The notes beneath the pieces are model-generated. The model saw only the letters and a program-made list of their open reading frames with translations, was not told the DNA's origin and did no database searches. A stretch of 32,000 bases of DNA, taken from NCBI GenBank assembly GCA_937888485.1, contig CALAQQ010000275.1, positions 1-32,000 on the forward strand, in the 5' to 3' direction. Source of the stretch: an uncultured Clostridia bacterium (GTDB taxonomy: Bacteria > Bacillota > Clostridia > Oscillospirales > Acutalibacteraceae). Of this stretch, positions 4,347 to 20,328 are shown in pieces. The translations under genes and the position numbers were made by a program. Position 1 is the first letter of the stretch; each line of letters opens with the position of its first letter.

Positions 4347-5063
4347 TTATCTGTGAGCCTTGAAATCTATTCCTGCTTTTCTTGCTTGACTGCACAGGTC
4401 TTTTGTCTGCAATTTGTATTCCTTACCGTCTTTGATGAAATGAGTTCCGCATTGTCTGAATTCAAAGGATACGTTTTTACGAACACACTGTTCTCTGATA
4501 TCAAGTGCCCAATCATAATCAAACGCCCGTGCACAATAATCCGACTCTCCGCCGACAACTACAAGTTCAATATTATCAAGATACGGTTCGATATGTATTT
4601 TTTCAAGCAACGGTTGTGCAGTAATACATTTGTGCTTTATCGGAAGTGATTTGAATAATGACAGTCTTTTATCCGCATTTTTTTGATTTTCAACAGTACA
4701 GCACACAACAACATTCTCATATCCATCGCCCCAATCGTCAGGGACACAATCTGCAAACCTTTCTATTCGTTTAGTGAGAAAAAGAAAAGTACAGTCTTGT
4801 CGTTGTTTTATCATATCCCAGCACTCTTTGCGCCACTCGTCCGCTTCTTCTATCAGAAAATCCGTTGAAAAGCAAAGGTAAACCATTCCTGCTTTCATTT
4901 TGTAGTTTCCGTTTTTTAACCGCTCAACAGGTTTGTAAAAATCTTTTGTTTTTATAATATCGTTTGTATTAACACCACGTTTTGCATCGCCTTTGTGTAT
5001 ATAGCAATGCAGACATCCTTCACTGCATTTTTTACAACCTCGCCACGGATTCCACATAGCCAT
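4347..5063 (-). CDS. DUF5131 / phage Gp37-Gp68 family protein (radical-SAM-like Cys cluster)
   Basis: It shows the family hallmarks MAMWNPWRGCKKCSEGCLHCY (WNP..GC...S.GC..CY), FLTKRIERF, VVVGGESDYCARAFDYDW and FEFRQCG. The start chosen is ATG 5063 (GGAG 11 nt upstream). The track start at 5072 is GTG, only 2 nt from the SD. Confidence 0.8.
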   Translation of the reverse strand: MAMWNPWRGCKKCSEGCLHCYIHKGDAKRGVNTNDIIKTKDFYKPVERLKNGNYKMKAGMVYLCFSTDFLIEEADEWRKECWDMIKQRQDCTFLFLTKRIERFADCVPDDWGDGYENVVVCCTVENQKNADKRLSLFKSLPIKHKCITAQPLLEKIHIEPYLDNIELVVVGGESDYCARAFDYDWALDIREQCVRKNVSFEFRQCGTHFIKDGKEYKLQTKDLCSQARKAGIDFKAHR

Positions 5064-5092
5064 AATAAACACTTCTCCAACTTCTTATTTAT

Positions 5093-5407
5093 CTATCTCT
5101 TTTTCTTCGGTAACGGGAGTTCATCATACATAGCGTTGAAAAGCTCTGCAAGAAAATCTCTGTTGTCAACATCATCGACGAGCAGCATTTCTTTTGCTCC
5201 CTCATAAGGCAATTCAAAAGTTGCATCGGGCATAAGAGCAACAGCCGATTTGACGGGCTTCACAAGCAGTCTATCATCATAAATTCCGCCGATGATTTTG
5301 CCTCTATAGTAGAGGATATATTCTCCCATCATCGCTCTGTATGTTACATCATCCAGTTCGGATAACTGTTCTAAAATGAATTCCAAATATTCCTTACTTG
5401 AAGCCAT
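5093..5407 (-). CDS. TfoX N-terminal domain protein
   Basis: MASSKEYLEFILEQLSELDDVTYRAMMGEYILYYRGKIIGGIYDDRLLVKP ... matches the small TfoX/Sxy N-domain family. The start is ATG 5407, with GAGG 6 nt upstream. It lies 20 nt upstream of the DUF5131 gene on the same strand. Confidence 0.7.
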   Translation of the reverse strand: MASSKEYLEFILEQLSELDDVTYRAMMGEYILYYRGKIIGGIYDDRLLVKPVKSAVALMPDATFELPYEGAKEMLLVDDVDNRDFLAELFNAMYDELPLPKKKR

Positions 5408-5543
5408 AATGTACCTCGTAAAAATTTTTATCATCTTAATCATATCACATAAAGCCTGAAAATTCCACCGTGTTTTTTGTGCCGTTCATATACAAAGGTA
5501 CTGATTACTCTGCACATATGGAAATGATCAGACCGTGTTTTTT

Positions 5544-5575
5544 GCCCCGCTTCGTGCGGGGCTTTTTCTTTTTGT
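5544..5575 (+). terminator. Strong intrinsic terminator on the plus strand with no annotated upstream plus-strand gene
   Basis: GCCCCGC-TTCGT-GCGGGGC followed by TTTTTCTTTTT. The opposite strand has no U-run. Confidence 0.6.
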
Positions 5576-5689
5576 TCCGCTTACTTGGATTTGTTATAAA
5601 ATTTTTCTCCAACCTTTGGAACATTTTGGCTTTCTTGTGTCGTATATGGTTGGAGGGCAAAATCATTATCACAAAAGAAAGGAGAATTT

Positions 5690-6613
5690 ATGAAGAATTC
5701 AAACGACTCTCTTATTCTCGGTATTGACCACGGATACGGGAATATCAAAACAGCAAACAAGACTTTTGGAACGGGTGTTTATGTGAGCGACACCGAGCCT
5801 GCTTTCAAAGACAATTTGCTTACGTGGAACGGTAAATATTACACAATCGGTGAAGGTCACAAGGAGTTCGTTGCCGACAAAATACAGGATATGGATTACT
5901 ATGTTCTGACCTTGGCAGCTGTCGCTTACGAGCTTCGTGCACGTGGACTGCGTGAGGCTAAAGTTCACTTGGCGGCAGGTCTTCCTCTGACCTGGCTCAC
6001 TGCACAGAAGGAAGCTTTCCGCAGCTACCTTTTGCAGAACAAAGAGGTTGAATTCAGCTTCAACGGCATTGACTACAGGGTCGAGTTTACGGGTGCGGAT
6101 ATTTTTCCGCAGGGGTTTGCCGCTATTGCGGACAGAATTCACGAATTCAGCGGAACAAATATGCTCTGCGATATCGGCAACGGTACGATGAACGTTATGC
6201 TTATCAATGAGAAGAAACCCGAAAACCGAAGATGCTTCACGGAGAAATTCGGCACTCAGCAATGCGTGATTCAGGCAAAAGAAGATATGATGCGCACTCA
6301 CCACGCAACGGTTGACGAATCGGTTATCACCCGTGTGCTTCGTTTCGGCAAAGCGGATATTGCGGATGAATTTCTTGAAACGATTACGAAATCCGCAAAG
6401 AACTATGTTGCCGAGATCTTCCGCAATCTTCGCGAACACGGCTACGACCCGAGAATGATGCGACTGACGGTTGTGGGCGGTGGCGGATGCCTGATTAAGA
6501 ATTTTGCCGACTGCGACAAATCACGAATTACCGTTATTGATGATATCCGTGCAACCGCAAAGGGTTATGAACGGCTTGCAACGAGGCAACGAAAAAGAAG
6601 TGGCAACAAATGA
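5690..6613 (+). CDS. parM: ParM/StbA-family actin-like segregation ATPase
   Basis: The actin-fold motifs are present: GIDHGYGNIKT (phosphate 1), CDIGNGTMN (phosphate 2) and VVGGGG (adenosine). A strong SD, AAAGGAG, precedes the ATG. Confidence 0.8.
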   Translation: MKNSNDSLILGIDHGYGNIKTANKTFGTGVYVSDTEPAFKDNLLTWNGKYYTIGEGHKEFVADKIQDMDYYVLTLAAVAYELRARGLREAKVHLAAGLPLTWLTAQKEAFRSYLLQNKEVEFSFNGIDYRVEFTGADIFPQGFAAIADRIHEFSGTNMLCDIGNGTMNVMLINEKKPENRRCFTEKFGTQQCVIQAKEDMMRTHHATVDESVITRVLRFGKADIADEFLETITKSAKNYVAEIFRNLREHGYDPRMMRLTVVGGGGCLIKNFADCDKSRITVIDDIRATAKGYERLATRQRKRSGNK

Positions 6614-6870
6614 ATATCAAGAAAATATCCGTGCGATTTAACCTTGATAAAGAAGCTGACAGCAAAGCTTGGCACTATCTTCGCTCTGTCAAAGGTCAGT
6701 CATACACTGAAACAGTAATCAATGCTCTGTTGAATCACGACCTGGCTGACCTCATTGAAGAAAAATTTGTCGGTATGAAACTTCAGGCACCACCCGAAGA
6801 AAAACAAATAAGCGAGATTGAACAAGAGGAAAATGATGATATCATCTTCAATTTTCTCGACAGCTTTTAG
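6610..6870 (+). CDS. Small ribbon-helix-helix-like protein, probable ParR-type centromere-binding partner with an acidic tail
   Basis: It is translationally coupled to parM (ATGA overlap at 6610..6613). The N-terminal KKISVRFNLDKEADSKAWHYL fits a beta-strand plus helix RHH pattern. The function is inferred from position only. Confidence 0.5.
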   Translation: MNIKKISVRFNLDKEADSKAWHYLRSVKGQSYTETVINALLNHDLADLIEEKFVGMKLQAPPEEKQISEIEQEENDDIIFNFLDSF

Positions 6871-6933
6871 TGACGGCATTTTTGCCGTCACTTTTGTTAT
6901 GCCGAAAAAACTATGACGGCACTTTTGCCGTCA
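6871..6933. repeat. Two copies of a 20 bp palindrome TGACGGCA-N4-TGCCGTCA
   Basis: 6871..6890 is tgacggcatttttgccgtca and 6914..6933 is tgacggcacttttgccgtca (19/20 identical, 43 bp centre to centre). The first copy is followed by CTTTTGTT and may double as the parM-operon terminator. Confidence 0.7.
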
Positions 6934-6937
6934 ACCC

Positions 6938-7070
6938 GAAACGGACTGTTTTGATAACCGCCCTCCTAAACGAAACAGTCCGCTTCATTTTGAGAAACGG
7001 ATAAATCCGAAAAATATCTGTTTCTTCAGTCTTAGCAAGCATTGGATTTATTGTAATAAATCCGCTTGCG
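6938..7070 (+). promoter_or_regulatory. Inverted-repeat cluster upstream of mobC, candidate oriT
   Basis: There is a perfect 10 bp IR, CGGACTGTTT (6942..6951) / AAACAGTCCG (6973..6982). There is also a composite IR, GCAAGC-att-GGATTTATT-gt-AATAAATCC-GCTTGC (7035..7069). The direct repeat ATAAATCCG occurs twice, at ~7001..7009 and 7056..7064. The position immediately 5' of mobC-relaxase is the usual oriT location. Confidence 0.5.
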
Positions 7071-7110
7071 GGGTAAACCCCGAGAATCAAAAAAGAAAGG
7101 AATGAACATT

Positions 7111-7440
7111 ATGCAGAAAAGAATCCACCGAGTAACCGTTTGCCTTACAGAAGAAGAACACCTCAGGCTCAATGAGATGTGTAAGGCAACCGGACTCACA
7201 ATGTCAAAGCTGATAAGATTTCTGCTCAGCGGCTATTTACCTGCACAGGCTCCTCCTGCCGAGTATGCTGTGCTGATAAAAGAACTGCGTGCAGTCGGCA
7301 ACAATCTTAATCAGCTTGCAAGAATCGTCCATTCGGGCGGTTATCTGAATACTGCCGAGCTTGAGAAAGCTTGCAAAAAATTCAATGAGGTTTCGGAAAA
7401 GGTTGACGAAGCCTTTGCACCCAAAAGAGCATGGCAGTAA
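7111..7440 (+). CDS. mobC: MobC-family relaxosome accessory protein
   Basis: RVTVCLTEEEHLRLNEMC (RHH-like) plus the signature LRAVGNNLNQLARIVHSGGY. The preferred start is ATG 7111 (GAAAGG 10 nt upstream). The track start at 7066 is a TTG lying inside the IR cluster. Confidence 0.8.
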   Translation: MQKRIHRVTVCLTEEEHLRLNEMCKATGLTMSKLIRFLLSGYLPAQAPPAEYAVLIKELRAVGNNLNQLARIVHSGGYLNTAELEKACKKFNEVSEKVDEAFAPKRAWQ

Positions 7441-8708
7441 CTAAAATATTCCCCATAAAAGGCAGGATTGGCAAATGTATCAACTATGTAATGAATCCCG
7501 AAAAGACAGTTGAAGCTGACGGGTGGAGTTATGTTGACGGCATCAACGTAACTCCCGAAACAGCTGAGAAAAATATGATGTCCGTAAAACGTCGCTACGA
7601 TAAGGAGGACGGGATAATGGCTTATCACGTAATTCAGTCTTTTGCACCCGGTGAGGTTACACCCGAAGTCGCACACGAAATCGGAATGAAGCTTGCCGAG
7701 AGAATGTGGGGCGAGAGGTTTGAAGTTGTTGTTTCAACTCACCTTGACCACGAGCATATCCACAACCACTTTGTTTTTAACTCCGTATCGTTTGTTGACG
7801 GGAAGAAGTATAACGACAATAAACGGAATCTTTACAGATTGCGTGAGGTATCCGATGAACTTTGCAAGGAATACAAACTGTCGGTTGTTATGAATCCGAA
7901 AAAGTCAAGAGGTATTCCGTATAACGAGTATATGAACGAAAAGAATATGAAGCTTACAAAGAATGCGATTATCAAAACCGAGATTGACGAAACGATACTC
8001 ACATCAATAAGCCGAAAGGACTTTTTCAATCAGATGAAAAAGAAGGGATACACCTTTAATTTCACAAGCCGATACTCAACGGTTTATCACCCTGCGTTCA
8101 AAAGACCGACAAGGCTTCTGACTCTCGGTGATGACTATGTTCCCGTGAATCTGATAAAACGCATTGACGAAAGCTGGCGCAGATACCCTGTTAATCTTCC
8201 GCCGCAGGATAACCTCTACAGAATGTATATCGGTGACGAGCCGACAGTCGGTTATGCACAGACCTATGTGCGGTTTATAACCATTGTTGAAGCGGTGAGG
8301 AAAAGACCGGATAACAACAGAGTTGCGGTTAAATACCTTGCCGATGAAATACGCAAGCTTAACAGGCTCGTTGAACAGCAAAACCTTTTGTGCGGTAACG
8401 ATATTGAAACCCCAGAACAGCTTGAAGCCTACAAGCAAGGCTGTAAGGATGAGATTGCAGAGTTAAGTGAGGCGAGAAATATTCTGCGAAGCAAGCTGAA
8501 AACTGCTCAGAACCACGGTGATGAAAATGAAGAGCGAGAGCTGAAAGGGTATATTTCAGATCTTACCGGAAGGATGAAAATACTGAGAAAAAATATTACC
8601 GTTTGCGAAAGGATTGAACAGAAGAAGCCTGAAATCGACGAGAAGCTTCAGGACATCAAAGAAATTTACCAACCAACCAGAAATAAAAATTATGAAAGGA
8701 GCCGTTAA
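7431..8708 (+). CDS. Relaxase / mobilisation nuclease (MobA/VirD2-type domain)
   Basis: It has the N-terminus MAVTKIFPIKG...INYVMNPEKT, the histidine triad THLDHEHIHNHFVFNSV, and a coiled-coil C-terminus. It overlaps the mobC stop by 10 nt. Confidence 0.85.
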   Translation: MAVTKIFPIKGRIGKCINYVMNPEKTVEADGWSYVDGINVTPETAEKNMMSVKRRYDKEDGIMAYHVIQSFAPGEVTPEVAHEIGMKLAERMWGERFEVVVSTHLDHEHIHNHFVFNSVSFVDGKKYNDNKRNLYRLREVSDELCKEYKLSVVMNPKKSRGIPYNEYMNEKNMKLTKNAIIKTEIDETILTSISRKDFFNQMKKKGYTFNFTSRYSTVYHPAFKRPTRLLTLGDDYVPVNLIKRIDESWRRYPVNLPPQDNLYRMYIGDEPTVGYAQTYVRFITIVEAVRKRPDNNRVAVKYLADEIRKLNRLVEQQNLLCGNDIETPEQLEAYKQGCKDEIAELSEARNILRSKLKTAQNHGDENEERELKGYISDLTGRMKILRKNITVCERIEQKKPEIDEKLQDIKEIYQPTRNKNYERSR

Positions 8709-8709
8709 T

Positions 8710-9570
8710 ATGGCAAACAGAAAATTAAAATCTGCGGTTAACATACCGCTTGAAAAAATCCGTCCCTTTGAGGGACACCCCTACAAGGTTATTGATAACG
8801 AGGAGATGAACACCCTGATTGAAAGCATACAGGAGCAGGGCATTCTCTCACCGCTTATCGTAAGACCGCTTGAAAATACAGAGGATGAATACGAGCTTAT
8901 CTCGGGACACCGCAGACTGAGGGCAGCACAGAAGGCAGGGGCAAAAAATGTTCCTGTCTTTATTTATGCCGTCAGCCGTGATGAAGCCGCAATAATGCTC
9001 GTGGACAGCAACCTGCACAGAGAACATATCTTGCCTTCTGAAAAAGCTTTTGCTTATAAGCTTAAGTTGGAGGCTCTTAAACATCAAGGTAAAACTTCGT
9101 GCCAACTTGGCACGAAGTTGAGAACAGATGAAGAAATAGCAGAAGACACAAACGATAGTGCAAGACAAGTACAGCGCTATATCCGTCTGACATATCTCAT
9201 CCCCGAGCTGCTTGACCTTGTTGACGAGGGCAGAATTGCTCTCACTCCTGCAGTTGAGCTGTCTTACCTTACCGAAGAACAGCAGTATTCTCTGCTTGGA
9301 ACGATTGAGGTCGAGGACAGAACACCGTCACTTTCGCAGGCAGTCCGCTTCAAAAAGCTCAGTCAGGCAGGTCAGCTGACCGATGAACTCATCGACTCGA
9401 TAATGCAGGAAGAAAAGGCAAATCAGCGTGAAATGTTCCGCATGCCGATGGAACGTTTGCAGAAAGCATTGCCCGATTTGAAGCCGAGTCAGGTTGAGGA
9501 TTTCATCATCAAAGCCATTGTTTACTATCAGAAACACTTGAACAGAGGAAAGGACAAGGGTGCGAGATAA
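8710..9570 (+). CDS. ParB/Srx N-terminal domain protein (ParB-like nuclease/partition family)
   Basis: IPLEKIRPFEGHPYKV and LISGHRRLRAAQKAG (the GxRRxxA arginine box). The start is ATG 8710, with AAAGGAG 8 nt upstream. The track start at 8614 overlaps the relaxase and is unsupported. Confidence 0.8.
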   Translation: MANRKLKSAVNIPLEKIRPFEGHPYKVIDNEEMNTLIESIQEQGILSPLIVRPLENTEDEYELISGHRRLRAAQKAGAKNVPVFIYAVSRDEAAIMLVDSNLHREHILPSEKAFAYKLKLEALKHQGKTSCQLGTKLRTDEEIAEDTNDSARQVQRYIRLTYLIPELLDLVDEGRIALTPAVELSYLTEEQQYSLLGTIEVEDRTPSLSQAVRFKKLSQAGQLTDELIDSIMQEEKANQREMFRMPMERLQKALPDLKPSQVEDFIIKAIVYYQKHLNRGKDKGAR

Positions 9571-9597
9571 TCCGCACATTTGTAAAGGAGGTTTGTA

Positions 9598-9798
9598 ATG
9601 AGTAATATTGATATAAATAAAATAAGCGATGACCCCGAATACTGTTTTGCGGCTTTGAAGCTCATTGAGCAGTTATTCAGGGACGGCAAAATACCGGAAT
9701 ATATGTTTCACAATATTCTGAAAGACTATGCGGATATTGTGGACGAAAGCAAGTTCATCAAAGGAAATCACAATCAGACAAAGGAGGACACAATATGA
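9598..9798 (+). CDS. Hypothetical 66 aa protein translationally coupled to the serine recombinase
   Basis: AGGAGG lies 7 nt upstream of ATG 9598, and its stop overlaps the recombinase ATG (ATGA at 9795..9798). I recognise no family. Confidence 0.5.
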   Translation: MSNIDINKISDDPEYCFAALKLIEQLFRDGKIPEYMFHNILKDYADIVDESKFIKGNHNQTKEDTI

Positions 9799-11534
9799 TA
9801 AATTCAGATTTCGGAAAGCGACGGGTAGTAATCTATGCCCGAGTTTCCACAGACCACAAAGAGCAGCTGTCGGCGCTTGAAAATCAGCTGGATTGGTATG
9901 AGCCGATTCTCAAGGCAAGACCCGAATGGGAGCTCGTTGACAGGTATATTGACGAGGGTATCACGGGCACATCCGCCGAGAAAAGACCGCAGTTTATGAA
10001 AATGATAAGGGATGCCAAGAAAAAGAAGTTCGATTTGATTATCACCCGTGAGGTTTCCCGTTTTGCCCGTAACACGGTTGACACCCTGCAGTACACCCGT
10101 GAACTTAAGGCGATGGGCGTTGAGGTTTTCTTCATAAACGATAACATCAAAACCTTTGACGGTGACGGCGAATTGCGACTGACGATTATGGCAACCCTTG
10201 CGCAGGACGAAAGCCGAAAAACATCGGTGAGAGTTAAAAGCGGTCAGCAGACATCAATGGAGAACGGTGTGTTCTACGGCAACGGCACCATTCTCGGCTA
10301 CAGGCGAGTTGAAAAACTGCTTGAAAACAACAAAAAGCACGTGGACTTTTTCATCGACCCCGTGCAGGCTGAAACGGTAAAGCTGATTTATGAAATGTAT
10401 CTTGAAGGTCACGGACTTATGCAGATAAAGAATGAGCTTGAACGCAGAGGCTACAAAACCGCAACGGGTAAAAGCAGGTGGTATGAAACGGTCATATCCA
10501 ACGTTCTGAAAAACTCGTTTTACTGCGGTATCATCACCTACCACAAGGAATATACGCCCGATTACCTGACACAGAAAAAGGTCAAAAACTACGGTGAAAT
10601 CGACCTTGTGCAGGTCAAGGGCAGACACGAGCCGATTGTATCGGTAGAAGATTACGAAAGGGTGCGAGCAATTATGGCAAGCAAAACAGCTCAATGCAAA
10701 ATGAACGCAAAGAAAAGAAGTCTGATGATTGGCAGAAGACCGAGAACTACCGTATGGGGTAAGCTGCTCATCTGCGAATGCGGTCACAAGTTCAACACAA
10801 GGAACTGGTACAGAACGGCAACACAGTCAAACATCGGTTATCAGTGCTACGATTCCGTGCGGACAGGCTCTTATGAAAGCAGAAAAAGGAAGGGGTTGCC
10901 GCTTGAGGGTATCTGCCGTACCCCGATGATACCCGAATGGAAGCTGCAGTTGATGGCAAACCACATCTTCCGCAACTATCTTATGCAAAGGGACAAGGTG
11001 CTGGCGCTTGCCAACTCGATGCTCGAAGCTCACATCGGCGACACGGGTGAAACAGTCGATTACGAAGAGATTATTGAGCAGAAGAAACGGCAGCTCGCAA
11101 AGCACAACCGAAAGCTCGACAACTATATCGAAATGAGGGCGGAGGGTGATATTGACAAGGACTCGTTCACCCAAAAAACATCGGAGCTCAGAGCCGAAAT
11201 AAGAAAGCTGAGTGACGAGATTGAAGCACTTGAAGATAAGCAGAACGACGAGCCTGAAATTGTGGACTACAAAGAAAAGCTGACGGTGCTTCAATATGCC
11301 CTTGTGCAGTACACAAATCCCGATGAAAACGACATACCCGAAAGCATAATTGAAGCCTTTGTTGAGAAGATTGTTGCAAAGAAAGACGGCTTTGATTGGT
11401 ACCTGAGATTTGACGGCGACCCGAACGATCCGCTTCACCTGAAAACCGAGGGCAGAAGGCGCCAAAACAGCTCTGTATCAACGGTTGGGGGACACCTCCC
11501 AACCACTCCTTTCGGAGACGCAGGCAGCTATTAA
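9795..11534 (+). CDS. Large serine recombinase (resolvase/invertase catalytic domain, recombinase domain, zinc ribbon, coiled coil)
   Basis: VVIYARVSTDHKEQLSALENQ contains the catalytic Ser. Also present are DLIITREVSRFARNT, LAQDESRKTSVRVKSG, the Cys-rich segment CECGHKF...YQCYD...GICRTP, and a long coiled-coil region. Confidence 0.92.
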   Translation: MINSDFGKRRVVIYARVSTDHKEQLSALENQLDWYEPILKARPEWELVDRYIDEGITGTSAEKRPQFMKMIRDAKKKKFDLIITREVSRFARNTVDTLQYTRELKAMGVEVFFINDNIKTFDGDGELRLTIMATLAQDESRKTSVRVKSGQQTSMENGVFYGNGTILGYRRVEKLLENNKKHVDFFIDPVQAETVKLIYEMYLEGHGLMQIKNELERRGYKTATGKSRWYETVISNVLKNSFYCGIITYHKEYTPDYLTQKKVKNYGEIDLVQVKGRHEPIVSVEDYERVRAIMASKTAQCKMNAKKRSLMIGRRPRTTVWGKLLICECGHKFNTRNWYRTATQSNIGYQCYDSVRTGSYESRKRKGLPLEGICRTPMIPEWKLQLMANHIFRNYLMQRDKVLALANSMLEAHIGDTGETVDYEEIIEQKKRQLAKHNRKLDNYIEMRAEGDIDKDSFTQKTSELRAEIRKLSDEIEALEDKQNDEPEIVDYKEKLTVLQYALVQYTNPDENDIPESIIEAFVEKIVAKKDGFDWYLRFDGDPNDPLHLKTEGRRRQNSSVSTVGGHLPTTPFGDAGSY

Positions 11535-17013: not shown

Positions 17014-17778
17014 ATGAAAGTAATAATGATGCTTCCCGACGGCATGCGTCCCGATTCGCTTGCAAATATCGAAAAAGCACAGAGAATATTGAAAGAGTCA
17101 TCCTATTCTCTCAATGCTGAAACTGTTTTCCCTTCGGTTACTTTGCCCTGTCACATTTCGCTTTTTCACAGTGTTACACCCGAAAGACACGGTACAACAA
17201 CCAACACTTATATGCCGCAGGTCAGACCTGTTGACGGTTTGTGTGAGGTGCTGAAAAGAGCAGACAAGAAATGCGCGGTTTTTTATAACTGGGAAGAAAT
17301 CCGTGATGTTTCCCGCCCGAATTCTCTTGCACATTCATGCTTTTATGCGGGAAGAAGAATCGGTTATAAGCAGGCGGGAGAGGAACTCACCGATGCGGCG
17401 ATTGATTATCTGAAAAAATATGATACCGATTTTACTTTTATTTATTTCGGTTATCCCGATATGCAGGGACATAATTTCGGCTGGATGACGGATGAATATA
17501 TGGAAGCGATTGAAAACAGTTGGGATAATATTGAAAAGCTGATGAATTCTCTCGGCGATGAATATACATATATCATAACGGCGGACCACGGCGGTCATGA
17601 CAGAACTCACGGCAGCGAAATGCCCGAAGATATGCTTATTCCCGTGATAATCAAGGGTAAGGATTTTGACGCTGGAAGAATTCTTGAAAATGTCAATATA
17701 ATCGACCTTGCGCCTACTGTTACAAAACTTCTCGGAGTTGAACCCGACGGTGAATGGGAAGGCAAGTCACTGATATAA
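17014..17778 (+). CDS. Alkaline-phosphatase-superfamily enzyme, type I phosphodiesterase / nucleotide pyrophosphatase-like
   Basis: DGMRPD, FPSVTLPCHISLFHSVTPERHG (nucleophile Thr motif) and ITADHGGHDRTHGS (metal-binding DHG motif). There is no signal peptide. Confidence 0.72.
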   Translation: MKVIMMLPDGMRPDSLANIEKAQRILKESSYSLNAETVFPSVTLPCHISLFHSVTPERHGTTTNTYMPQVRPVDGLCEVLKRADKKCAVFYNWEEIRDVSRPNSLAHSCFYAGRRIGYKQAGEELTDAAIDYLKKYDTDFTFIYFGYPDMQGHNFGWMTDEYMEAIENSWDNIEKLMNSLGDEYTYIITADHGGHDRTHGSEMPEDMLIPVIIKGKDFDAGRILENVNIIDLAPTVTKLLGVEPDGEWEGKSLI

Positions 17779-17784
17779 AAAAAG

Positions 17785-17808
17785 ACCCTCTGTCCGAAGA
17801 CAGAGGGT
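17785..17808. terminator. Bidirectional terminator hairpin
   Basis: ACCCTCTGTC-cgaa-GACAGAGGGT, flanked by AAAAAAAG on the left and TTTATT on the right, between convergent genes. Confidence 0.7.
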
Positions 17809-17824: not shown

Positions 17825-18319
17825 TTATGCGATTTCCTTAACGCCGATGTGAATGCCCTTCTCAAGATATTCGAAGATTGTACCAAATACCTTGTTGTAG
17901 GGGATATCCTTAAGAAGACCGAAGAGACCGCCGAAAATCTTTTCATAGAGATCTGTTTCTTCAAGGAACTTCATGATCTTGTGAACGGGGATGCTGAGAT
18001 ATTTGCCTTTGCATTCTGCAACGTGTGCATCAAAAGCGTTTCTTGTTACAACGATTTCGCCGCAGTAGTCGCATTCGCCTTCGAATTCAAGGCAAATGCC
18101 TTCGTGAATCTTAAGTTCTTCTTCTGTAGCAAAGTCAGCGCCGCATTCATACTGGCAATCACGGAAATAACCGTCGCAGTTAGCGAGATGCTTATTATAT
18201 GCAGCTTCGTTTTTGTAAGTTTCATTGCAGTAGGGGCAAGTGTTTGTTGATGCAAATGCAACTGTTGCTGTTGAAAGAATGCAAACAAGTGCAAGCACGA
18301 TTGATAAGAACTTTTTCAT
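17825..18319 (-). CDS. Signal-peptide protein with three tandem C2HC zinc-finger-like modules and an amphipathic C-terminal region
   Basis: The signal peptide is MKKFLSIVLALVCILSTATVAFA-ST. Three modules follow with C-x2/3-C-x12-H-x3-C spacing at residues 28..48, 55..76 and 83..103. SD GAAAGGAGA lies upstream of ATG 18319. Confidence 0.75.
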   Translation of the reverse strand: MKKFLSIVLALVCILSTATVAFASTNTCPYCNETYKNEAAYNKHLANCDGYFRDCQYECGADFATEEELKIHEGICLEFEGECDYCGEIVVTRNAFDAHVAECKGKYLSIPVHKIMKFLEETDLYEKIFGGLFGLLKDIPYNKVFGTIFEYLEKGIHIGVKEIA

Positions 18320-18383
18320 TATTCTTATCTCCTTTCAAATTATTTTTTTGGCGCATTTCACGTAGCAACCATATATTGTAATA

Positions 18384-18412
18384 ATCCTATCATAAATGAA
18401 CAAATTTGTCAA
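18384..18412 (-). promoter_or_regulatory. Promoter TTGACA-17 nt-TGa-TAGGAT for the zinc-finger protein gene
   Basis: On the minus strand, TTGACA is at 18412..18407 and TAGGAT at 18389..18384, preceded by TG. Confidence 0.45.
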
Positions 18413-18462
18413 TATGTATTAATAAAATGTTAACGCCGTATAGAAAAAATTTTTGATTTTTG

Positions 18463-20328
18463 TTATTTTCCCCAGTTGTAGGGTCTGTCTATGAAGTCGA
18501 CGGTTTCTTTATCCTGAGGAATAATTGCAAAGGATGAAACTCTGTCAAGACCGTGGCTTTTGAAGTCGTCATAGAGCTTTTCATTTTCTTTGAGCCTTCC
18601 GGGATTGAGGAAGATGAATTCGCCCATGAAAAGATTGGATTTATAGTATCGCCAGCTGAGCTCGGCAACCTCAACGTTGAATTTCTGCTCTTCGGTTATG
18701 TCGGAATTCAGCGCAAGGTCAAACAGAATATCGCTTTTGGCAACGGTATAAGGTGAACAGAATCCTGCCTGATAGTGCCAGTCAAAGTCAAAGGCGTGGG
18801 CTGTTGCTTTTGTCTGTGCCGTCTGGAGGTCAATATATTCCTTGATATAGGGAGCGGCTTCCTTGCCGTAGAAGGCATTGAGAAAATCGTTCATGTGATA
18901 TTCAACATCGCAGTTGACATCCCACTGAAGCTTGCAGAGAAGATAATTGCGGAGTTCGTTGAATGCAGCATAATGACCGTCACCGCAGTTGTAGATATAA
19001 CCCGTTATGCCGATGTCGTGCATGTATTTCATGGTTGACTGCATTGTTTCGAAGTTTGAGAAAAACATAGCAGTGTTAAGGAAATTAATTGTGTAGTCGT
19101 AGATATATGTTGTGTCCGCAACCTTGACCCAGTTTGCAAAATCCTCGGCAATCTGAGGGGCAGGGTCACCGTAAAGCATATCGAATGTTTCATTCTCGAT
19201 TCCGTCCATCGCACCGCATTCGGTAAGGAGATGGCTTCTGCATGCTTTATGAAGTCCGCAGAGAACGGGCGCAACGTTGGGATTGCAGCGAAGCGATAAA
19301 TCTGTCGGAGGTCTGTCGGTTTCATTATAGGCATAGAAGGTGAACATGAAATCGGGGAACTCATCATCGAGTGCATCGGCAAAATTATTTGTAAAGATAA
19401 GCGTCGGTGCACATACCGTGCCGTATTTTTCGTAAAGAGCTTCACATGAGTCGCAGTGGCAGTAATTCATGTTATCTTTCTGACCGATATGAATATATTT
19501 TGCATCGGTTTTGCAGTTGAGAATTGCATTTCTTCCGTTTTCAACCGCAATCGGAAGCACGTCGGGGTGGGAAAGGCAGACGTGGTCGGTGCTTCTTGTG
19601 CCGTCGGGCTGAAGAGCAAAATATTCGGGATGCTCTGCAAAGAGTGAATCAGGAACAAGGTCGGTTAAAGTGACGTCCCATAAAACGTAGGTCAGCGCAC
19701 CGCCGTATGCCGTAGCTTCTTTCCAGAAAGAAACGTTCATTTTTGTTCTTGCGCGGTGAGCGTCGTTTGTGTCTTGACAGTCATTTCTTCTGACTGAAAA
19801 TGACGGTTCAACTGTACGGTTTATATTTGCATCGATGATAACATCCTTGTTTTTGGGAACAACTTCAAGCGTCGGCGTAAACCAACGAACGCCAAGATAT
19901 TCTTCAAGGAAGGTATAAACGCCGTAGAGAGTGCCTCTGTCACTTCCTCCCGAAATATAAAGATTTTTGCCGTCGGATTTAAGTGTGAAGCCGTCATCGG
20001 CTAAATCTTTAAGCTCCGAATTTTTAATAATAACAGCGTTTTGACTGTCGGAAATCTTGTTTTCTGTTATGTGTTCAATTTCCGCACCGCTTATTTTTTC
20101 GATATATGTCTGAAACTCGTTGACGGCGGTGAGTATGCACTCCGATGGGTTTTCTTCCGTTACAATAACATAATCCGTTTCGCTGTTTTCAACGATATAC
20201 ATCGGAGTTTCAATCGTCGGAGCAACGTATTTATCTCCGCCGTAATTGATGTTTGTGTTGAGGGGAATAATTCCAACGGCAAAAAGAATAATCTCAAAAA
20301 GAGAAAAAATTGCTTTGATTGTTGCCAT
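18463..20328 (-). CDS. DUF4838-domain protein (putative glycoside hydrolase, GH20-like N-terminal fold), N-terminally anchored
   Basis: There is an N-terminal TM segment, IFSLFEIILFAVGIIPL. GFTLKSDGKNLYISGGSDRGTLYGVYTFLEEYLGVRWFTP is the characteristic DUF4838 N-terminal region. Confidence 0.65.
   Translation of the reverse strand: MATIKAIFSLFEIILFAVGIIPLNTNINYGGDKYVAPTIETPMYIVENSETDYVIVTEENPSECILTAVNEFQTYIEKISGAEIEHITENKISDSQNAVIIKNSELKDLADDGFTLKSDGKNLYISGGSDRGTLYGVYTFLEEYLGVRWFTPTLEVVPKNKDVIIDANINRTVEPSFSVRRNDCQDTNDAHRARTKMNVSFWKEATAYGGALTYVLWDVTLTDLVPDSLFAEHPEYFALQPDGTRSTDHVCLSHPDVLPIAVENGRNAILNCKTDAKYIHIGQKDNMNYCHCDSCEALYEKYGTVCAPTLIFTNNFADALDDEFPDFMFTFYAYNETDRPPTDLSLRCNPNVAPVLCGLHKACRSHLLTECGAMDGIENETFDMLYGDPAPQIAEDFANWVKVADTTYIYDYTINFLNTAMFFSNFETMQSTMKYMHDIGITGYIYNCGDGHYAAFNELRNYLLCKLQWDVNCDVEYHMNDFLNAFYGKEAAPYIKEYIDLQTAQTKATAHAFDFDWHYQAGFCSPYTVAKSDILFDLALNSDITEEQKFNVEVAELSWRYYKSNLFMGEFIFLNPGRLKENEKLYDDFKSHGLDRVSSFAIIPQDKETVDFIDRPYNWGK

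Follow-up and report, generated by a model that had tools for sequence, protein, structure and literature searches.

What is an array of zinc fingers doing behind a signal peptide in a member of the Clostridia? The question is raised by a small gene in a 32,000-nucleotide stretch of DNA (positions 1 to 32,000 of contig CALAQQ010000275.1, assembly GCA_937888485.1, from an uncultured Clostridia bacterium of the Acutalibacteraceae), the whole of which is referred to here as the window. As an earlier reading of the sequence (the original prediction) had pointed out, the protein encoded by this gene carries three tandem finger-like units downstream of an apparent Sec signal. Zinc fingers with Cys and His ligands are textbook intracellular modules that serve mostly in nucleic acid or protein recognition in eukaryotes, and to our knowledge the only well-studied relative in bacteria is the single cytoplasmic finger of Ros/MucR. 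We propose, with a probability of roughly 55%, that the array is a zinc-stabilised, rod-like module at the cell surface, which either binds something other than nucleic acid or acts as a scaffold or spacer.

The segment from 18011 to 18238 spans exactly three units of the form C-x2/3-C-x12-H-x3-C (Table 1), and these are joined by two linkers of six residues each, DGYFRD and LEFEGE. The spacing up to the first histidine fits the classical C-x2-4-C-x12-H arrangement, and the core aromatic or hydrophobic positions are filled in each unit (Y35/Y41, F63/L69 and V90/F96), but the ligand set is not Cys2-His2, as the fourth ligand is a cysteine in all three units (C48, C76 and C103). When the mature sequence was shuffled 200,000 times, not a single shuffle contained two or more finger units, and the three-unit pattern therefore exceeds chance. 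The Pfam model zf-C2H2 (PF00096) matches three stretches of the protein at 36.9 bits against a cut-off of 25.2, and two further models also exceed their curated cut-offs (zf-C2H2_4, 36.4 against 27; zf-C2H2_jaz, 27.6 against 22.6). The window protein falls below threshold with zf-C2HC_2 (20.3 bits against 27) and with zf-TRAF (PF02176; 17.0 against 27), and nothing specific was found for it in searches of NCBIfam, PHROGs and PDB sequences.

Structure prediction gives a matching picture. An AlphaFold2 model computed with the family alignment begins with a signal-peptide helix, continues with three strand-strand-helix units and ends in three further helices (mean predicted local distance difference test score, pLDDT, of 73, with 76–89 for fingers 2 and 3), and a model of residues 24–110 alone again contains three beta-beta-alpha units (pLDDT 82). 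In Foldseek comparisons of both models with the PDB the top 50 matches are all multi-finger arrays, including CTCF, TFIIIA, ZFAT, ZBTB proteins, Zif268 and TRAF6, with probabilities of up to 0.99–1.00. The best global overlay of the finger-only model is with the N-terminal region of TRAF6 (3hcs_A; TMq 0.45, root mean square deviation 6.1 Å over 81 columns), whereas DNA-bound classical arrays give TMq values of 0.26–0.38. A family profile compared with PDB sequences finds the classical arrays Aart (E-value 3.4e-5) and Miz-1 (8.8e-5) at the top of the list, followed more weakly by a finger of TRAF4 (0.037) and by 2k9h, the dual CCHC finger of hantavirus Gn (0.043). Finger profiles and fold prediction had both been suggested as checks on the original prediction, and with both the presence of three beta-beta-alpha fingers of the classical type, in which Cys is the fourth ligand, is confirmed at the level of the models; the three Cys3His sites are putative zinc-binding sites. 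A disulfide-knotted module is an unlikely alternative, given that the mature protein has an odd number of cysteines (nine), every one of them at a ligand position and accompanied by a conserved histidine.

The N-terminus has the make-up of a type I signal peptide, with a basic n-region (K2 and K3), a hydrophobic core of about 18 residues (FLSIVLALVCILSTATV) and the site A21-F-A23/S24, which conforms to the -3/-1 rule. Neither the first five residues nor the AFA site varies among the signal peptides of the window protein's family, and M1 is the sole start codon preceded by the invariant ribosome-binding site GAAAGGAGA. A lipoprotein was considered and rejected, as the cysteine at position 13 lies outside any lipobox and is not conserved. 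A pattern scan of GTDB genomes found two unrelated proteins that share just this type of N-terminus, one a Peripla_BP_4 solute-binding protein (210.8 bits) and the other a surface protein that has Listeria-Bacteroides repeats together with an NPXTG-like anchor; evidently it is a standard export signal of these bacteria. The Sec signal that had been proposed for the window protein is upheld by these comparisons, and the protein is predicted to be exported through Sec and cleaved at AFA/S.

The orientation of the fingers is also addressed by more distant relatives. When 1.84 billion representatives were searched exhaustively with HMMER, 719 matches were obtained at E-values up to 1e-3. An exported family was compiled from the matches listed and a second profile search, restricted to clusters of up to 320 residues, and all counts for this family are counts among the matches listed. 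Signal peptide and fingers are combined in at least 126 clusters, with one finger per protein in 38 of them, two in 51, three in 28, four in seven, and five and six in a single cluster each, and Cys occupies the fourth ligand position of 232 among the 263 fingers. Where an organism is named, the sources are metagenome-assembled genomes (MAGs) of Clostridia; the subfamily of the window protein comes from Acutalibacteraceae/Oscillospiraceae MAGs, so that the suspicion of a restriction to gut Clostridia, voiced when the array was first noted, seems about right for the subfamily.

There are three classes of C-terminus in the exported family. The first (class A) consists of amphipathic repeats of the form 'K.IDW..I..KV....K.IDF..I..K.KP..EK'. 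The second (class B, 68 clusters) has a conserved helical stalk and a Glu/Thr-rich linker followed by a sortase-type signal, with x[D/E]TGS, about 20 hydrophobic residues and KKK. The third (class C) is represented by P0066 alone, which ends in a dockerin-like module, GDINGDGVINVLD...NLDTEEGINAKD. Since either a wall anchor or a dockerin needs the chain to be outside the cell, the finger module of the superfamily is placed in an extracytoplasmic position, and from these architectures we take the fingers to be extracytoplasmic head modules at the distal, N-terminal end of their proteins. The window protein, as judged from its sequence, belongs to a superfamily of the Clostridia (Oscillospirales-type) that has not been described previously, in which one to six N-terminal fingers are predicted to face outward on secreted or surface proteins. 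Two relatives come close to or pass the zf-TRAF cut-off of 27 bits (P0195 at 26.5 and P0086 at 28.1).

The members of these clusters are named in their sources only as 'hypothetical protein [Clostridia bacterium]' or 'uncharacterized Zn-finger protein', and no family name was found for them in Pfam or NCBIfam beyond the generic finger models. A search for literature on extracellular or exported bacterial finger arrays, including any link of such arrays to dockerins or cellulosomes, found none, within an incomplete coverage of the literature. The expectation that an exported array of this kind is undescribed has thus held as far as it was tested: the fold is a known one, found here in a new compartment, architecture and lineage.

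Closer to the window protein, a search of a 5.8-billion-protein collection found 36 clusters of homologs, nearly all of them 159–165 residues long. In an alignment of 23 homologs, with a mean column identity of 57%, every one of the 12 ligand positions is either invariant or conserved to at least 90%, and the same is true of the MKKFL start and the AFA site. Pairwise ratios of nonsynonymous to synonymous substitution rates (dN/dS) against eight orthologs are 0.16–0.29 for the whole gene, 0.13–0.26 for the fingers and 0.16–0.39 for the tail, and these low values show that both modules are under purifying selection. The protein is 80–84% identical to its orthologs, compared with 88–95% for the flanking GH92, phosphodiesterase and MFS genes; it diverges faster than its neighbors, a trait common in surface proteins. 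Two further observations concern individual parts of this comparison. In the signal-peptide codons (18251–18319) dS is only 0.03–0.24 in seven of the eight comparisons, against 0.4–0.97 in the remainder of the gene, which suggests that the 5′ end is either constrained at the nucleotide level or subject to gene conversion. Also, one homolog that is 75% identical (P0024) has three ligand cysteines replaced (C31F, C48F and C59S), with no Pfam finger match recorded, and is either a decaying copy or the product of an assembly error.

The second module of the protein is its C-terminal tail, a diverged copy of the 'K.IDW..I..KV' repeat of class A that is conserved in the family. In the AlphaFold2 model its helices occupy residues 112–121, 124–137 and 141–163, and their hydrophobic moments are 0.43–0.70. 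The tail is nearly neutral in charge (isoelectric point, pI, of 6.0, with 7 basic and 8 acidic residues), GG/FG motifs are present, and there is no transmembrane stretch within it. No relatives of the tail were found in Pfam or the PDB. The window protein, whose last residues are ...IHIGVKEIA, lacks the sortase motif of the class B relatives (xxTG, a hydrophobic stretch and a basic tail).

The finger gene has its own expression signals (Table 1). The promoter elements TTGACA and TGnTAnnAT show little or no variation among 13 loci representing at least three contexts, and the sequence GAAAGGAGATAAG ahead of the ATG is nearly invariant. Adjoining the -35 hexamer, the A/T-rich block GTTAACATTTTATTAATACATA is a candidate UP element or regulator site. 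In total, about 120 bp upstream of the gene (18320–18434 in the window; upstream of L010–L025 elsewhere) are conserved across at least three unrelated contexts, which indicates that the gene moves or persists as a cassette. The terminator, a strong one, is common to the finger gene and to a convergent phosphodiesterase gene, with the two arranged tail-to-tail. The finger gene is a self-contained cassette with its own promoter, ribosome-binding site and terminator; the independent transcription unit that had been predicted is therefore borne out, with TTGACA separated by 17 nucleotides from a TAGGAT that is preceded by TG, and with a terminator hairpin at the other end. From the quality of its promoter the gene is probably strongly expressed. 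A role of the 5′ untranslated region as a riboregulator was rejected: no match to Rfam exceeds its threshold (PyrR, 27.7 bits against 54, and DUF805b, 19.4 against 35.6, are both taken as chance), and RNAalifold finds only a hairpin of six pairs in the leader (-0.34 kcal/mol), with no compensatory changes and thus no supported fold.

We suggest that these properties could be combined as follows. The gene would be transcribed from its own consensus promoter, of which the sequence is plain and the strength presumed. The protein (about 16 kDa) would pass unfolded through Sec and, if it behaves as its sequence and relatives suggest, be cleaved at AFA/S to give a mature product of two modules. Once outside, the three Cys3His sites would take up zinc and fold the acidic array into a stiff rod, both the metal and the rigidity being expected from homology. 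Such sites would be feasible outside the cell in an anoxic gut, where thiols stay reduced. The amphipathic tail could then keep the protein attached to the membrane or wall, or else oligomerise it, by comparison with the anchors and the dockerin-like module found at the equivalent position in relatives, and the finger head would either bind a ligand other than nucleic acid (a protein, a glycan or a surface) or act as a spacer. The rod-like geometry is suggested by the ligand set and six-residue linkers, which equal those of TRAF6, by the overlay on TRAF6, and by the zf-TRAF scores of P0195 and P0086. Among the options first offered, a metal-stabilised extracellular module is thus the one that the evidence favors.

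Several points weigh against this proposal. Cysteine-rich zinc sites are unusual outside cells and would be oxygen-sensitive. The arrangement of the fingers relative to one another is uncertain in the AlphaFold2 model (predicted template modelling score, pTM, of 0.53), the best Foldseek E-values are just about 2e-3, and the tail is modelled at low confidence, with a pLDDT of 50–60. Neither a sortase signal nor a dockerin nor any further recognised anchor is present in the window protein, and its retention at the surface would follow by analogy with its relatives. A profile of 22 tails matched finger-family proteins only, together with one apparently chimeric assembly, and an independent anchoring domain is not demonstrable from this tail-profile search. 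The anchors of the relatives are themselves below formal thresholds, as the class B signals score up to 19.8 bits with Rumino_NPXTG (cut-off 23.5) and 14.4 with LPXTG_anchor (cut-off 15.9), and the module of P0066 scores 17.1 bits with Dockerin_1 (cut-off 22.9). Finally, the genomic contexts contain no hint of a partner or ligand.

The most familiar function for such an array would be nucleic acid binding, and the original prediction had included a secreted effector that binds nucleic acid. Its targets would be DNA or RNA outside the cell or, once taken up, the nucleic acids of a host, as with MoHTR1/2/3 of the rice blast fungus. Secreted C2H2 effectors are known in fungi (PMC7672089, PMC10189765), and the spacing and core of the window fingers are classical, with DNA-binding arrays as the closest structural and sequence matches. 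The charge of the protein points in the opposite direction. Residues 24–108 include 17 acidic and 7 basic residues (pI 4.5, net charge -12; pI 4.8 for the mature protein), and the helix positions -1, 1, 2, 3 and 6, which read DNA in classical fingers, are occupied mostly by acidic or small residues (N/E/A/A/K, T/E/E/E/I and T/R/N/A/A). There are no basic recognition helices, no seven-residue linkers of the TGEKP type and no basic patch resembling a nuclear localisation signal. The family at large is acidic too: its finger regions have a median net charge of -4 and are negative in 121 of 126 clusters among the matches listed, whereas finger arrays found by the same search that have no signal peptide carry net charges of +12 to +21 (one of the longer matches is named as a fish protein). 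The acidity of the finger region, in the window protein and in its family, makes binding of DNA or RNA improbable. Relatives that are predicted to be covalently anchored to the producer's own wall would not be translocatable, and a Gram-positive commensal has no known route of delivery into host nuclei, so that this part of the original prediction is not sustained and we regard an effector of this type as very improbable. No more plausible is a lack of export, with the protein either held by an uncleaved N-terminal anchor with its fingers in the cytoplasm or acting as a cytoplasmic regulator. It would agree with the overwhelmingly intracellular occurrence of zinc fingers, yet the positive n-region orients the N-terminus inside and the rest outside, the AxA site is invariant in the family, the sortase-type signals in 68 related clusters among the matches listed imply a body outside the cell, as does the dockerin-like module of one relative, and acidic fingers are unsuited to DNA.

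Two other explanations accept export. An extracellular protein for scavenging, storing or buffering zinc, a 'zincophore' comparable to pneumococcal Pht or fungal Pra1 in which each finger would reversibly carry a single Zn2+ at the surface of the cell and pass it to an importer, would account for the presence of one predicted metal site in each 28-residue unit, repeated one to six times across the family, on an exported protein that is likely to be abundant, as its promoter is strong and invariant, and an acidic surface would attract cations. Structural Cys3His finger sites, however, bind zinc very tightly and are ill-suited to its delivery, and the conservation of non-ligand surface residues and of the tail suggests more than metal storage. 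No importer of the AdcA/ZnuA type and no Zur/AdcR gene adjoins the finger gene in any of the approximately 12 distinct contexts examined, and no operator of the Zur/AdcR type was recognised in the conserved upstream block, where no dedicated scan was made. We consider zinc scavenging unlikely on balance. The remaining proposal is a pro-protein, in which the tail helices would be a membrane-active peptide similar to bacteriocins or phenol-soluble modulins and the acidic fingers a neutralising or carrier pro-domain that could mask it. The hydrophobic moments and GG/FG motifs of the tail are consistent with this, as is the nature of the gene, a small, stand-alone, strongly expressed and fast-evolving cassette with tandem paralogs; but the tail is not cationic, there is no conserved cleavage site between the modules, genes for immunity, transport or processing are not found beside it in the contexts examined, and in many relatives the tail is swapped for a stalk and wall anchor, which leaves the pro-protein with very poor odds. 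A zinc-stabilised rod at the cell surface is the reading that we prefer.

The genomic setting of the finger gene adds little to this choice. Its convergent neighbor is a type I phosphodiesterase/metalloenzyme gene (17014–17778), its co-directional upstream neighbor is a DUF4838 gene (18463–20328), and the surroundings also include genes for GH92, GH31, an MFS transporter and an LRR protein of the BspA type. The label of glycan-utilisation island given to this region is a fair one as regards its GH92, GH31, DUF4838 and MFS genes, but the functional weight attached to it has not stood up, because the DUF4838/GH92 linkage is kept only in some of the close relatives (those of at least 75% identity). 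Relatives at 70–85% identity are found after V-ATPase subunit D or elsewhere, and more distant ones adjoin MatE, transketolase or ribosomal-protein loci; with homologs in such unrelated contexts, the neighborhood was rejected as a functional clue. An origin from a phage or as a moron was likewise rejected, as no relatives of the finger protein were found in IMG/VR viral contigs.

Table 1. Coordinates of the finger gene, its modules and signals, and other segments of the window (window positions; finger residues are numbered from M1).
Feature	Position	Strand	Basis
Coding sequence, 164 residues plus stop codon	17825-18319	-	Translation identical to that quoted in the original prediction
Sec (type I) signal peptide, residues 1-23, MKKFLSIVLALVCILSTATVAFA/S, predicted cleavage AFA/S	18251-18319	-	-3/-1 rule, family conservation
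Finger 1, C28-x2-C31-x12-H44-x3-C48 (CPYC-x12-H-LAN-C, residues 28-48)	18176-18238	-	Pfam match, pattern, models
Finger 2, C55-x3-C59-x12-H72-x3-C76 (CQYEC-x12-H-EGI-C, residues 55-76)	18092-18157	-	Pfam match, pattern, models
Finger 3, C83-x2-C86-x12-H99-x3-C103 (CDYC-x12-H-VAE-C, residues 83-103)	18011-18073	-	Pfam match, pattern, models
C-terminal tail, residues 109-164, three amphipathic helices	17828-17995	-	AlphaFold2 model, family conservation
A/T-rich block GTTAACATTTTATTAATACATA, adjoining the -35 hexamer on its upstream side	18413-18434	-	Conserved by the gene in several genomic contexts
Sigma-A-type promoter, TTGACA (18407-18412), 17-nucleotide spacer, extended -10 TGaTAGGAT (18384-18392)	18384-18412	-	Promoter scan
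5′ untranslated region, about 60 nucleotides, including ribosome-binding site GAAAGGAGA (18328-18336)	18320-18383	-	Conservation
Intrinsic terminator, 10-bp stem (6 G-C pairs) then T run; hairpin 17785-17808	17775-17808	-	Sequence
DUF5131	4347-5072	-	Mobilisable element-type block
ParM-like ALP_N	5690-6613	+	Mobilisable element-type block
MobA/VirD2 relaxase	7431-8708	+	Mobilisable element-type block
Large serine recombinase	9795-11534	+	Mobilisable element-type block
Long open reading frame, 643 residues	12484-14415	-	Conserved in related MAGs, 78-85% identity
Long open reading frame, 586 residues	24707-26467	-	No Pfam match at E up to 1e-5
Long open reading frame, 364 residues	28941-30035	+	No Pfam match at E up to 1e-5

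Elsewhere in the window there is a block that resembles an integrated mobilisable element (4347–11534), and three long open reading frames with no Pfam match at E-values up to 1e-5 lie amid the GH92, GH31, DUF4838, MFS and BspA-LRR genes (Table 1). Tandem paralogs of exported finger proteins are present in other genomes (L008, 7279–7821 and 8001–8480; L028, 2984–3628 and 3645–4400; L031, 7001–7711 and 7739–8329). One of these pairs holds a three-finger paralog of 31% identity with an altered spacing, C-x2-C-x20-H-x4-C, and the others are composed of one-finger and two-finger proteins of the sortase type. Genes for secreted LCAT/lipase-like alpha/beta-hydrolases occur within a few kb of finger genes at two unrelated loci (L028, 835–2724; L001, 13278–14852), and the L028 hydrolase ends in an amphipathic Phe-rich helix; this proximity may be a coincidence. 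Exported fingers may also extend beyond the family of the window protein, judging by differently built proteins among the HMMER matches. P0084 combines a signal peptide with nine acidic C2H2 fingers and a C-terminal domain, P0086 a signal peptide with the C2HC fingers that pass zf-TRAF (28.1 against 27), and P0125 and P0127 a signal peptide with four C2HC fingers, a domain rich in beta structure and then an amphipathic tail. In P0076 and P0114 four C2H2 fingers come after an N-terminal membrane segment, and in P0060 approximately nine C2H2 fingers precede a C-terminal hydrophobic segment.

A sizeable family with finger arrays behind signal peptides, many of them sortase-anchored, would mean that this fold works outside the cell in anoxic habitats, and would enlarge the known range of Gram-positive surface proteins in gut and rumen Oscillospirales by a new head domain. 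It would raise the matter of zinc and redox dependence in surface architecture, and that of a possible transfer of fingers from eukaryotes. It also calls for caution in annotation, as bacterial 'zf-C2H2' matches need not be transcription factors. More tentatively, and at distinctly less than even odds, beta-beta-alpha fingers could be a general extracellular adhesin or scaffold module of anaerobic gut Clostridia, not recognised before, represented in more than 100 clusters by one to six fingers on amphipathic, sortase-anchored and dockerin-bearing carriers and dependent on zinc and anoxia for folding. If so, such proteins would have a built-in sensor of an anoxic, zinc-replete gut niche, and the rule that Cys-based zinc fingers are intracellular only would have to be extended.

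How, then, does the window protein compare with systems already known? With the classical C2H2 fingers (PF00096; Zif268, TFIIIA and CTCF) it shares the C-x2-4-C-x12-H spacing, the x3-aromatic-x5-hydrophobic-x2-H core, the tandem arrangement, the predicted beta-beta-alpha fold and a score above the Pfam gathering cut-off. It differs in having Cys rather than His as the fourth ligand, linkers of six residues rather than seven of the TGEKP type, an array that is strongly acidic instead of basic, and a signal peptide in a bacterial, extracytoplasmic setting. The cytoplasmic tail of hantavirus and nairovirus Gn (PDB 2K9H) has tandem CCHC beta-beta-alpha fingers that pack on each other (PMC3243910). 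Its profile similarity to the window family is weak and not significant (E-value 0.043), and sub-threshold Pfam Nairovirus_NSm matches occur in members of the finger family; the Gn fingers, unlike those of the window, are cytoplasmic, two in number and linked to ribonucleoprotein binding, with no arrangement close to a signal peptide. In Ros/MucR a bacterial C2H2-like zinc site is present as a single finger within a larger globular DNA-binding domain (PMC9779718). Those proteins are cytoplasmic, basic transcription regulators or silencers of the alpha-proteobacteria and have only the zinc site in common with the window protein, which does not contain a single finger embedded in a globular DNA-binding domain of about 58 residues and gives no ROS_MUCR match in Pfam even at E-values up to 10.

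The Magnaporthe oryzae proteins MoHTR1/2/3 are small secreted C2H2 proteins that act as nuclear DNA-binding effectors (PMC7672089, PMC10189765). They resemble the window protein in their size and in the combination of a signal peptide with fingers, but they are eukaryotic and translocated to host nuclei, whereas the window protein is acidic and bacterial and has wall-anchored relatives. Nearer in lineage are the sortase- and cellulosome-associated surface proteins of the Ruminococcaceae, with which the relatives of the window protein share a signal peptide, an N-terminal head, a stalk and an x[D/E]TGS or dockerin-like end, although the window protein itself has neither anchor nor dockerin. We know of no described adhesin domain in which a zinc finger is the head module.

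A further parallel is with the TRAF-type fingers (PF02176). In the 3HCS chain sequence, TRAF6 fingers 1–3 have the form C-x2/4-C-x11-H-x3/4-C and are joined by linkers of exactly six residues, and the window array shares with them the Cys2-His-Cys ligands, the six-residue linkers and the best overlay of the whole array. The short linkers of TRAF6 produce a rigid rod, and its fingers serve in protein interactions rather than DNA binding; more generally, CCHC variants of the classical finger (FOG, NEMO and TRAF) mediate contacts with protein and not with DNA. The TRAF fingers differ in having 11 rather than 12 residues before the histidine and in being eukaryotic and cytoplasmic, in contrast to a bacterial protein that is predicted to be exported and has none of the RING, coiled-coil and MATH partner domains. 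Judged by its sequence, then, the window protein is a hybrid, in which the x12 spacing and core of the classical fingers are combined with the Cys3His ligands and short linkers of the TRAF type.

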